In this document: positions 60,590-64,000 of the stretch, in pieces
Position numbering within the stretch: position 1 is the first letter of the stretch
Layout: the number at the start of each line of letters is the position of its first letter
Assembly (NCBI GenBank): GCA_963740355.1
Contig: CAVUDW010000002.1
Coordinates: 1,696,001-1,760,000 of the forward strand
From: an uncultured Gemmatimonadaceae bacterium
GTDB taxonomy: Bacteria; Gemmatimonadota; Gemmatimonadetes; Gemmatimonadales; Gemmatimonadaceae
Reading direction: 5' to 3'
DNA length: 64,000 nt
Program-made: the position numbers and the translations under genes
Notes under the pieces: generated by a model
Told to the model about the DNA's origin: nothing
The model's database searches: none
The model's input: the letters and a program-made list of their open reading frames with translations, nothing else

Positions 60590-62266
60590 ATGATGTTGCG
60601 TCGAGTCGCCACGCTGCTGATCGCTGTTGCCCTGCCGTTCCTGGCGTCCTGCGTGACCCCGATGGGCTACCTCGGACCGCGTCCGGCGTTGGCTGTCGTG
60701 AACGCGCGGATCTGGACGGGAAGCACCGCCCGTCCGTGGGCGGAGGCGCTGGCGGTGGACAGTGCCGGACGGATCTCCTATGTCGGCACCTCGGTGCAGG
60801 TCGGTCGACTGGGCGCGGTCACGGTGATCGACGCGAAGGGCCAGATGGTGGTGCCGGGATTCATCGACGCGCATGTGCATTTCGTCGACGGAGGCTTTGC
60901 GCTGTCCTCGGTGCAGTTGCGCGATGCGAAGACGAAGGAGGAGTTCATCTCGCGAATCCGCGACTACGCGCGCACCCTGCCGAAAGGTGCGTGGATCACC
61001 AATGGTGATTGGGATCACACCAATTGGGGTGGGGAACTGCCGCGTCGTGACTGGATCGACTCGGTGACGCCCGACAATCCCGTCTGGATCAATCGGCTCG
61101 ACGGGCACATGAATCTCGCGAATTCGCTGGCGCTGAACGCGGCGCGGTTGACGCGCAGCGTGGCCGACGTGCCTGGCGGCGAAGTGGTCCGCGATGCATC
61201 GGGCGAACTGACCGGCGTGTTCAAGGACAACGCGCAGGACCTCGTCAATCGCGCAATGCCCGCGCCGCCCGCCGCGATCGAGGATCGCGCGCTGGATACG
61301 GCCATGGCCTACGTCGCGTCGTATGGCGTGACGAGCGTGCACAACATGGGGAGCTGGAATGACCTCGCCATTTTTGCTCGAGCACATGGCACACCACGCC
61401 AGAAGACGCGCATCTACGGCATGATCCCGCTGGCCGACTGGAAGCGACTGCGCGATACCGTCGCAACTCGTGGTCGCGGCGATGACTGGCTGCGCATCGG
61501 TGGGCTGAAGGGTTTCGCCGATGGGTCACTCGGCTCGCATACCGCCGCGATGTTCGATGGATTCACCGACAAGCCATCCGACAAGGGATTCTTCGTCACG
61601 CCACCCGAGAGCTTGTACGCCTGGACCTCCGGCGCTGACAAGGCCGGCCTGCAGGTGATCGTGCACGCGATCGGCGACCGCGCCATCTCGACGCAGCTCG
61701 ATGTCTTTGCGCGCGTGGCCAAGGAGAATGGGGCACGTGACCGTCGCTTCCGGATCGAACACGCGCAGCACATTGGGCGCGATGACGTCGGGCGCTTTGC
61801 GAAGCTCGGCGTCATTCCCTCGATGCAGCCCTATCATGCCATCGACGATGGGCGATGGGCCGACAAGGTGATCGGTGCCGATCGCGCGTCGCGCACCTAT
61901 GCTTTCCGGTCGTTGCTGGATGCGAAGGCATCACTCGCCTTCGGCTCGGACTGGTTCGTTGCGCCGCCGCGTCCGATGGAAGGCGTGTACGCGGCCGTGA
62001 CCCGCCGCACGCTCGACGAGGCCAACCCCAACGGGTGGGTTCCGGCGCAGAAGATCACGGTCGAGGAGGCACTGCGCGCCTACACACGCGGGAGTGCCTA
62101 CGCCGCGTTTGACGAGGCCAATCGCGGTACGCTCGACATCGGCATGCTGGCCGATTTCGCGATGCTGGAGCGTGACATCACCACGATTCCCCCGGCCGAC
62201 ATCCGCAACGTGAAGGTGACGCGGACGGTGGTTGGGGGGCGGGTGGTGTTCGAGCGGAAACCGTAG
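60590..62266 (+). CDS. Amidohydrolase_3 (YtcJ-like) lipoprotein
   Basis: Lipobox LASC; PGFIDAHVH, DGSLGS.TA, HAIGD, RIEHAQ, FGSDW. Confidence 0.9.
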   Translation: MMLRRVATLLIAVALPFLASCVTPMGYLGPRPALAVVNARIWTGSTARPWAEALAVDSAGRISYVGTSVQVGRLGAVTVIDAKGQMVVPGFIDAHVHFVDGGFALSSVQLRDAKTKEEFISRIRDYARTLPKGAWITNGDWDHTNWGGELPRRDWIDSVTPDNPVWINRLDGHMNLANSLALNAARLTRSVADVPGGEVVRDASGELTGVFKDNAQDLVNRAMPAPPAAIEDRALDTAMAYVASYGVTSVHNMGSWNDLAIFARAHGTPRQKTRIYGMIPLADWKRLRDTVATRGRGDDWLRIGGLKGFADGSLGSHTAAMFDGFTDKPSDKGFFVTPPESLYAWTSGADKAGLQVIVHAIGDRAISTQLDVFARVAKENGARDRRFRIEHAQHIGRDDVGRFAKLGVIPSMQPYHAIDDGRWADKVIGADRASRTYAFRSLLDAKASLAFGSDWFVAPPRPMEGVYAAVTRRTLDEANPNGWVPAQKITVEEALRAYTRGSAYAAFDEANRGTLDIGMLADFAMLERDITTIPPADIRNVKVTRTVVGGRVVFERKP

Positions 62267-62286
62267 GCGTTGCGCCCGCGGAGGAC

Positions 62287-62622
62287 CATGAAGAGGTCAG
62301 CATCAGGGGGCCGCATCAAGGGGTCAGGGGCGATCAAGGGGTCAGAGATCGTGTACTGGGATTTCGTGGCGTAAGGCGTTGTGCCGTATGGCGTTGCGCA
62401 TCGATCAAGGGGTCAGAGATCTTGATCGAGCTTTTCGCAGCGTAAATCGCGGCGCATCAAGGGGTCAGAGATCTTGCACTGGGATTTCGTGACGTAAGGC
62501 GTTGCGCCGCATGGCGTTACGCATCGATCAAGGGGTCAGAGATCTTGATCGATGGTTTTCGCGGCGTAAATCGCGGTGCCGCATAGCGTTACGCATCGAT
62601 CAAGGGGTCAGAGATCTTGATC
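62287..62622 (+). repeat. Array of GATCAAGGGGTCAGAGATCTTGATC hairpin motifs with alternating related spacers
   Basis: Copies start at 62332, 62403, 62455, 62526 and 62598 (spacing 71/52/71/72), preceded by three degenerate 13-14-bp half copies at 62287-62327. Confidence 0.9.
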
Positions 62623-62656
62623 CTGCCATCGCCCCCGGTCACACGCCACACCGCAG

Positions 62657-63697
62657 TTAACGCATCAGTGTCGCGGGCGGCACCGCGACCCGACCAATCG
62701 TCCCCTGATCGGTGCCGAACCAGATCTGGCGGGTTGCAGGATCGAACGTCATGTGCCGGATCGTGTTCGGCCCAGGGCGACCCACCGGGATCTCCGCACC
62801 GAATGACTTCGTGCGCGGGTCGAACGCGACCAGCGTTGCCGGCGCATTGGTGCGGCCGTTCTGTGCGACCCAGATGATGTCGCGATCATCCGTCGCCATG
62901 CCGTAGGGCAGGGCGTTGCCACCGGCAGGCATTGGCCATTCGCGCGTGGCGCCACTCTTGGGATCGAGATGGCCGACGAACCCGCGTGAGTAGTCGCCCC
63001 AGTAGATCTGGTCGTCCGAGGTGATGGCGATGCGGCGCGGGCGCGTGCGTTCGTCACCCACGGCGTAGGTGCGGATCTGTGCGCTGCCCGGTTCGATGGT
63101 CGCCAGCTTGTTGGTGCCGAACAGGTCGAACCACGGCTGCCCGCGCGAGTCGAGCACGATGCCATAGGGACGTGAGCCTTCGCCTGTGCGCCAGAGACGG
63201 AAGCGGCCGGACGCTGGATCGAATCGACCGACGACGCCAGAATTCTGCGCCGTGAACCAGGCGATGCCGGTCCGCTTGTCGAAAATCATCGTGTGTGGAT
63301 CGCGCACCGTGCTGTCTGGAATCATGAACGTCGTGAGCTTTCCCGTGCTCGGGTCGAGCTTCACGATGCGGTTGTTGCGATTGCCGGTGAACCAGACCAT
63401 TCCCTTTTCGACGACGAGATTATGCGGGTTGGTCCCCGCCTCGATCTCGTAGCGACGGAACTGTCCAGTGCGGGTGTCGAGGTGGGCGATGTAGTTGCCG
63501 TTCTGCCCGACGAACCAGACGCGCCCCTCGGCATCGGCATAGGGATCGCGCGGGCGGGAGTCGGCGCCGTAGGGCACGGTCCACTCGCGGAGCACAGGCG
63601 GTGCGGCAGCGGCTGCGGCCCGCTGCGCGCGTAGTGTGGCGCTCTGGGCGAAGGTGGCGAGGGACGCGACGAGGCTGACGGCGACGGCAATACGCAT
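62657..63697 (-). CDS. Secreted Vgb (virginiamycin B lyase)-like beta-propeller protein
   Basis: Signal peptide; repeated P-x-[GN]-x...G.VWF..Q....I.+LDP.TG blades (PRDP, PHNL, PHTM, PYGI, PRRI, PYGM). Confidence 0.82.
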   Translation of the reverse strand: MRIAVAVSLVASLATFAQSATLRAQRAAAAAAPPVLREWTVPYGADSRPRDPYADAEGRVWFVGQNGNYIAHLDTRTGQFRRYEIEAGTNPHNLVVEKGMVWFTGNRNNRIVKLDPSTGKLTTFMIPDSTVRDPHTMIFDKRTGIAWFTAQNSGVVGRFDPASGRFRLWRTGEGSRPYGIVLDSRGQPWFDLFGTNKLATIEPGSAQIRTYAVGDERTRPRRIAITSDDQIYWGDYSRGFVGHLDPKSGATREWPMPAGGNALPYGMATDDRDIIWVAQNGRTNAPATLVAFDPRTKSFGAEIPVGRPGPNTIRHMTFDPATRQIWFGTDQGTIGRVAVPPATLMR

Positions 63698-63755
63698 GAG
63701 GGCTCCCCGGGAATGGATTCTCAATCTAAGTGCTGGCGTCGTTCAAGGGACCAGC

Positions 63756-64000
63756 GATCAAGATCTCTGACCCTTGATCGGGGGCTAAGCCGATCAGCGG
63801 CAATGCGTTACGCGCGGAATTGCGTGATCAAGATCTCTGACCCCTTGATCGGGGCTCAGCCGATCAGCGGCAATGCGTTACGCGCGGAATTGCGCGATCA
63901 AGATCTCTGACCTCTTGATCGGGAGCTAAGACGATCAGCGGCAATGCGTTACGCGCGGAATTGCGCGACCAAGATCTCTGACCCCTTGATCGGGAGCTAA
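63756..64000 (-). repeat. Near-perfect 70-71-bp tandem array of the same hairpin motif in the opposite orientation; runs off the window end
   Basis: GATCAAGATCTCTGACCCCTTGATC variants at 63756, 63826, 63896 and 63967; spacers are almost identical. Confidence 0.92.

Follow-up and report, generated by a model that had tools for sequence, protein, structure and literature searches.

An array of identical hairpins on one side of a gene and an oppositely oriented array of the same hairpin on the other raise the question of whether such a frame marks a mobile gene cassette. The case considered here comes from the genome of an uncultured Gemmatimonadaceae bacterium (5.45 Mb, 65% G+C, 5 contigs) and lies at the right-hand end of a 64,000-nt stretch, C2:1696001-1760000, which is called the window below. 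In the window, a gene for a Vgb_lyase-family beta-propeller protein (62657..63697, - strand, 346 aa from the ATG; delimited by open reading frame, Pfam match and synteny) stands between a left array of + strand hairpins (62332..62622) and a right array of - strand hairpins (63756..64000). We consider it very probable that the arrays are local clusters of a repetitive extragenic palindromic (REP)-like repeat maintained by a single-copy transposase of the REP-associated tyrosine transposase (RAYT) type, and that the Vgb-like gene and its frame do not form a mobile unit. The reasons are that the hairpins form an intergenic family, that the RAYT gene is itself framed by them, and that RAYT and hairpin vary together across genomes.

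The window was searched with the 19-mer GATCAAGGGGTCAGAGATC, allowing up to 3 mismatches and using 100 shuffles as the control. Five matches were found on the + strand (62332, 62403, 62455, 62526 and 62598) and three on the - strand (63832, 63902 and 63973), and none of the 100 shuffles contained any match. A fourth - strand copy with a 1-nt deletion occupies 63756-63779, and a fifth lies beyond the window at C2:1760038-1760062, 38-62 nt after its end. The first-pass annotation of this DNA had counted five + copies of a 25-bp motif left of the gene and at least four - copies right of it, a count that these searches confirm. The distances that it gave are likewise correct by direct reading: the last left hairpin (end 62622) is separated from the Vgb-like stop codon (62657-62659) by 34 nt, and the ATG (63695-63697, - strand) from the first right copy (63756) by 58 nt. 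Tandem Repeats Finder (TRF) reports periods of 72 and 123 nt with 85-92% matches for the left array and a period of 70-71 nt with 93% matches for the right one. The five left hairpins, delimited by sequence search and TRF, are spaced by 46-47-nt modules or by one shortened 27-nt module, with a 123-nt higher-order repeat; the four right hairpins start at 63756 (the copy with the deletion), 63826, 63896 and 63967.

The hairpin family and its probable transposase

The full repeat is the 25-mer GATCAAGGGGTCAGAGATCTTGATC, which has a 7-bp stem and an 11-nt loop (-3.6 kcal/mol folded as DNA). At 5 or fewer mismatches, the whole genome contains 217 matches at 214 distinct places, and the reversed genome, which served as a control, contains none. 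All 214 copies are intergenic and are distributed over 48 intergenic regions, as delimited by a purpose-written codon-usage gene caller (4295 genes). The spacing of successive copies on the same strand is exactly 71 nt in 70 cases and 25 nt in 27. From the 71-nt spacing it follows that the unit consists of a 46-nt module and a 25-nt hairpin.

Two Y1_Tnp genes, 34% identical to each other, were found in the genome. Both are outside the window; therefore, the earlier statement that no transposase is present in the window holds for the Y1 family, which is the family that this check covered. The first gene (C2:1530271-1530981, - strand, 236 aa) is located 165 kb upstream of the window. A ++++ array lies on its left, 32 nt from the stop codon, and a --- array lies upstream of its start, so that the '+ gene -' geometry is the same as at the Vgb-like gene. 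The protein scores 47-49 bits against Pfam PF01797 (Y1_Tnp; cut-off 23), and its HUH motif (H60, H62) and Y120 (in RYIDLNPVRAG) are invariant in 26 homologues. In a profile search of the PDB, TnpA-REP of E. coli (4ER8, E = 3.2e-5) was the best match among solved structures. In addition, homologues of 42-46% identity in Ramlibacter and Polaromonas are annotated at their source as REP-associated tyrosine transposases. By these sequence features, the predicted product is a RAYT-type tyrosine (HUH/Y1) transposase.

The second Y1_Tnp gene (C3:374499-375140) is RAYT-like as well, and has a + left / - right frame of another repeat, CCGGTGACAGTGCAC. This repeat occurs in 126 copies and 51 clusters; most copies form classical inverted doublets whose starts are 32 nt apart. 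Each of the genome's two repeat families has its own single-copy transposase. Among the 214 copies of the hairpin, '+ then -' neighbours number about 20 and '- then +' neighbours 4; the CCGGTGACAGTGCAC family likewise favours '+ then -'. Many of the CCGGTGACAGTGCAC clusters are found at C2:1630-1687 kb, directly upstream of the window.

Of the 19 further genomes in the same genus, 11 contain a RAYT orthologue of 50-59% identity, and nine of these loci were examined. Five of these (G017, G009, G002, G007 and G005) are framed + left / - right by a hairpin variant of their own; GTTCAAG...CTTGAAC and TTTCAAG...CTTGAAA are examples of variants at framed loci. As for the remaining loci, G012 and G008 have one-sided copies, G018 has a single weak copy and G010 has none; the variant of G012 reads GCTCATG...CGTGAGC. 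In an alignment of 18 distinct hairpins from nine genomes, in which one row is 2 nt out of register, three of the seven stem pairs change on both sides, and the covariation score is 0.189 versus 0.090 after shuffling, a value reached in none of 500 shuffles. When hairpins were counted with a generalised pattern, eight of the 11 genomes with such a RAYT carry 40-151 copies. Of the eight genomes without it, seven carry 0-12 and one, G014, carries 120. As the genomes are kin, these counts describe a co-occurrence and do not amount to an independent statistical test.

The exact 19-nt core is also found in metagenome-assembled genomes (MAGs) of Algicola, Alteromonadaceae and Pseudomonadota, at about 20 of the 78 loci in the search output. 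In proteobacterial MAGs, RAYT relatives of 35-45% identity are framed + left / - right at three of the four full-length loci inspected (G041, G043 and G044), with no frame at G042. The framing of the RAYT gene and its orthologues by matching hairpins supports an action of the RAYT in trans, as the first-pass annotation had proposed for a RAYT-like HUH/Y1 enzyme. These findings place a RAYT/TIRYT repeat system in Gemmatimonadaceae. A literature search found no report of RAYT/TIRYT repeats for Gemmatimonadetes, and the string 'gemmatimon' does not occur in the accessible text of bioRxiv 10.1101/2021.07.10.451892 or PMC3733652. Meanwhile, one hairpin core, exact over 19 nt, accompanies RAYT relatives in Proteobacteria that are only 35-45% identical, which makes the family useful for the question of what these enzymes recognise. 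Single units in gammaproteobacterial MAGs (loci L050-L104) are composed of the hairpin, about 37 AT-rich nt and a half copy, TCAAGGGGCCAGAG. The AT-rich modules of the Algicola units show by eye a pattern that presumably resembles an IHF site, and no counterpart of it was found in the modules of the present genome.

Proposed array growth and possible host functions

The 46-nt module has a consensus with GG at positions 1-2, TT at 7-8, TAAG at 16-19, TTG at 23-25, TTAG at 38-41 and CC at 45-46. Within arrays, the median difference between modules is 4.5 of 46 positions, versus 22 of 46 between arrays, and the hairpins differ between arrays at 1.6 of 25. The likeness within arrays, the drift between them and the 123-nt repeat together suggest that each site has grown by tandem duplication, with the hairpin under strong constraint. 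In the Vgb frame, the modules of the left and right arrays differ at 22-23 of 46 positions, like those of any two unrelated arrays; therefore, neither array is a recent copy of the other. Degenerate partial hairpins at the outer edge of the left array (62287..62331, + strand) were recognised by direct reading, and TRF lists a row there with a period of 18 (62303-62345). A fixed-register scan of all column pairs for covariation in the module gave nothing clear. A three-helix candidate for a conserved module fold, obtained from single-sequence folds, was rejected, as its 50-56% pairing is no better than that of permuted columns.

Outside the window, at C2:127557-129577, a TetR-like gene and a cupin gene are enclosed by two arrays of the same orientation, with 1.3 kb between them. 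The modules of these arrays (C2:127.6 kb and 129.2 kb) differ at only 3-7 of 46 positions. By sequence, the pair looks like a recent short-range copy, and we regard the small number of module differences as direct evidence of short-range copying.

A REP-like repeat is a short extragenic palindrome that forms a hairpin in single-stranded DNA. For TnpA-REP of E. coli, single-strand binding and cleavage are described in the accessible text of Ton-Hoang et al. 2012 (PMC3333891). By analogy with that enzyme, the RAYT would bind single-stranded DNA at the hairpin, which has a 7-bp stem and the conserved GGGGTCAGAG loop, and would cut and rejoin near it, and new copies may be seeded by this reaction, often near old ones. 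A seeded site would then grow via tandem duplication of the 71-nt unit (46-nt module and 25-nt hairpin), a process that would keep the units of an array alike while the arrays drift apart. The Vgb frame would thus be made of two independent old arrays, placed in both intergenic regions beside a resident gene. According to Bertels & Rainey 2011 (PMC3337134), no mechanism had been proposed for tandem higher-order REP arrays, and the tandem 71-nt units offer a tidy case for how REP clusters grow.

Several observations weigh against this explanation. The 236-aa protein reaches 79.7 bits against the NCBIfam model REP_Tyr_transpos, 0.3 bits short of the cut-off of 80, and a PDB search with the single RAYT sequence gave no match. 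Neither of the tetranucleotides GTAG and CGTC that tag the classical REP super-families, nor a complement of them, occurs in or beside the 25-mer consensus. The inverted doublet (REPIN) is a minority form, because only about 20 '+ then -' junctions exist: REPIN-type doublets (inverted, within about 130 bp) do not dominate, with 20 '+-' cases versus 70 same-strand intervals of 71 nt and another 27 of 25 nt. The module has a fixed length of 46 nt and conserved positions, shows no covariation, and is left unexplained by the model. Three genomes (G012, G005 and G019) have the RAYT yet only 3-9 pattern-matching copies; in G012 at least, the flanking hairpin is too diverged for the generalised pattern. 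Conversely, G014 has its 120 copies and a RAYT found only at 36% identity in an assembly that is 96% complete; its cognate RAYT gene may have been lost or left unassembled. Finally, both the activity of the enzyme and the seeding of new insertions are predictions from sequence.

It would be compatible with RAYT-maintained clusters, and is in our opinion rather unlikely, that the host keeps the 71-nt units as 3'-end stabilisers, convergent-gene insulators or protein-binding platforms. The placement of the arrays might be seen as a sign of such a function: 18 of 580 convergent regions are occupied, as are 7 of 613 divergent and 23 of 2109 same-direction ones, so that arrays are about three times as frequent in convergent as in either other type of region. 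Of the 100 hairpins in same-direction regions, 69 have the sense orientation relative to their flanking genes; however, when arrays are counted instead, the bias is 15 versus 7 with 2 ties, which is not significant. Stem variants with a T-G wobble are commoner than those with a C-A mismatch, and the unit length is fixed, as the 70 spacings of exactly 71 nt show. Against a host function stand the module, which lacks a conserved secondary structure, and the orientation of the arrays, which is independent of the replichore (11, 8, 11 and 12 arrays in the four classes). In addition, the scan of 62200-64000 found no promoter-like or terminator-like site, and the same sites are free of arrays in relatives.

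Somewhat less probable again is a narrower form of this idea, in which the 71-nt unit, more than transposon debris left to drift, would serve either the RAYT or a host protein as a composite platform for binding. Arrays of it would be retained next to certain genes, frequently on either flank, to insulate or tune these. Its ingredients are the near-invariant hairpin (1.6 of 25 differences), the fixed-length module, about 20 conserved positions and the lack of a base-pairing signal. Neighbouring intergenic regions are both occupied in 5 cases versus 0.69 expected (P = 0.0006) when occupancy is permuted within region types; if the unit were such a platform, this local pairing would reflect function, and not short-range copying alone.

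The framed genes in related genomes

The Vgb-like gene product matches Pfam Vgb_lyase (PF24684) with 92.4 bits (cut-off 50). It does not reach the curated resistance models, scoring 61.9 bits for Vgb(A) and 58 bits for Vgb(B) versus a cut-off of 600. On these profile scores, the predicted protein is a member of the broad Pfam Vgb_lyase family only, and not the streptogramin B lyase Vgb. It is probably secreted, since its N-terminus resembles a signal peptide by eye. In the window, the gene adjoins an amidohydrolase gene (Amidohydro_3; 60590..62266, + strand; open reading frame with Pfam PF07969, 352.7 bits), whose stop codon is 65 nt ahead of the first full hairpin of the left array; the array is in sense to this gene. 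Five genes were found in the 8 kb beyond the window end, encoding a metallophosphoesterase, an unknown protein, an ABC transporter, an MBL-fold protein and an epimerase.

The first-pass annotation had taken the inverted arrays for ends or recombination sites on which an enzyme acting in trans could capture, invert or mobilise the one gene that they enclose. Clean '+ array, gene, - array' frames do occur at the RAYT, Vgb-like and Rieske-like genes, and both the excess of neighbouring occupied regions and the ratio of '+ then -' to '- then +' junctions (20 versus 4) would suit a repeat-bounded cassette. However, we consider this reading very improbable in view of the gene order in relatives. The Vgb-like gene has orthologues of 75-82% identity in G017, G011, G012, G016 and G005, all of them tail to tail with the same amidohydrolase, whose orthologues are 78-87% identical. 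In G017, G011 and G016, 15-30 nt separate the two stop codons, versus 390 nt in the present genome. At four of the five Vgb-like loci, no hairpin-like sequence was found (19-nt core, 5 or fewer mismatches); the locus of G017 has one hairpin, which lies upstream of the gene in the opposite orientation. G011 likewise has the upstream metallophosphoesterase, of which G017 retains a fragment.

Generally, the segment downstream of the amidohydrolase is variable in the genus, and the Vgb-like gene is present in six species and was not found in others. For example, G019, G010, G007 and G009 have the amidohydrolase and not the Vgb-like gene, and in G019 the amidohydrolase is directly followed by an orthologue of the MBL-fold gene that sits 6 kb further on in the present genome. 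This variable neighbourhood points to ordinary insertions and deletions, with no relation to where the arrays lie.

Two further framed genes gave the same picture. The Rieske-like gene at C3:2457748-2458170 is syntenic in seven relatives, six of them without hairpins, and the gene for a 394-aa secreted protein at C2:766283-767470 is syntenic in three relatives, all without hairpins. A wider array pair, about 3 kb apart, encloses rpsG-rpsL, which also speaks against a cassette, as does the divergence between the modules on the two sides of the Vgb frame. The framed genes are each found once, at a conserved place, and RAYTs do not move themselves according to the accessible text of Bertels & Rainey 2022 (bioRxiv 10.1101/2021.07.10.451892). 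At locus L129 (G017, 105-872), the two intergenic regions that flank the Rieske-like gene, the same regions as here, contain hairpin doublets of that genome's own variant. These doublets suggest that some sites are either old, with ancestral occupancy, or favoured.

Among public sequences, the best carriers contain 0.05-0.12 of the sampled words of this locus; all are short metagenome contigs, and none is recorded as RNA. They show scattered pieces and a few joints, for example from 62428 to 63819 with 38 other letters between, and these are hairpins of other arrays or other organisms.

Judged by synteny, the Vgb-like gene is a resident and not mobile cargo, and a cassette is rejected both here and for the other two framed genes compared. 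The idea of captured or mobilised single-gene cargo is thus not supported, as the Vgb-like gene adjoins the amidohydrolase in five relatives, four of which are free of hairpins at the locus. The first-pass annotation had named two signs that would speak against it, namely synteny in relatives lacking the arrays and no tendency of the copies to flank variable genes in inverted pairs. The former was found. The latter was not, as neighbouring regions are occupied more often than expected; the pairing of arrays around genes is real, and the enclosed genes are resident. For annotation this calls for caution, since an inverted repeat frame round a gene need not imply mobility.

Two other explanations fare worse. 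Transposons of the Tn3 family have 38-bp inverted repeats. In the arrays, a span of 38 nt runs from GGGG in the hairpin to TAAG in the module; this apparent likeness in length and end motifs and the '+ then -' geometry would suit a miniature element of such a transposon. That origin is hardly credible, as the repeats frame a Y1 transposase instead, and DDE_Tnp_Tn3 (PF01526) has no match in the genome, of which about 5% is unassembled, while control genomes were matched; with no Tn3 transposase in the genome, a Tn3-derived element was ruled out. As for a clustered regularly interspaced short palindromic repeat (CRISPR)-like array of 25-nt repeats and 46-nt spacers, the regular layout and a weak Rfam CRISPR-DR51 match in 62200-64000 (20.5 bits versus a gathering score of 45, E = 4.7) leave it a negligible chance and it was ruled out, because the 'spacers' are mutually homologous with a common consensus, 48 arrays exist genome-wide with both orientations in one site, and the match, far below threshold and at chance level, falls in the module and not in the hairpin.

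Comparison with known systems

The RAYT-maintained clusters proposed here can be compared with three described systems, in each case as far as the accessible text of the source goes. The REP/BIME (bacterial interspersed mosaic element) system of E. coli with TnpA-REP, or REPtron (PMC3333891), shares with them an imperfect palindrome outside genes and one Y1 HUH enzyme flanked by the repeats. In addition, its clusters have fixed linkers and variable copy number, and its enzyme is the best solved match, 4ER8. In contrast to that system, the present repeat has no GTAG tag, and the copies in an array run in the same direction and do not alternate. The enzyme differs too, with 236 aa here versus 165 aa in TnpA-REP, and the kinship of the two is visible only at profile level (E = 3.2e-5).

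The REPIN-RAYT system of Pseudomonas (PMC3337134) resembles the present one in that each repeat family has one RAYT and a genome carries several families. The paper describes REPs or REPINs as the typical flanks of RAYTs, mentions tandem REPIN arrays, and reports '+ then -' as a common configuration of REP doublets. Tandem higher-order arrangements and a strong preference for the '+ then -' doublet are found here as well. However, direct tandem units dominate in the hairpin family, whereas it is the CCGGTGACAGTGCAC family that does form classical doublets.

The third description is that of the TIRYT (TIR-associated tyrosine transposase) genes, which are RAYT-like and flanked by inverted repeats sharing GGGGWSAS (Di Nocera et al. 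2013, PMC3733652). The loop GGGGTCAG of the present hairpin fits this motif, and the loop variant GGGGACGG of G009 and G012 is one position off it. The TIRYT repeats form moderately abundant families and occur in dimers or clusters. Further points of likeness are a RAYT-like gene longer than the E. coli RAYT, its inverted-repeat frame and a repeat family in dimers or clusters, together with a motif common to distant species, here MAGs of Gemmatimonadaceae and Alteromonadaceae. The difference lies in number and layout: there the families are moderately abundant, whereas here there are about 214 copies, most of them in direct tandem arrays whose unit is fixed at 71 nt. Matched on its description in the accessible text, and above the level of its four TIRYT groups, the TIRYT/TIRtron class is thus the one to which the hairpin family belongs.

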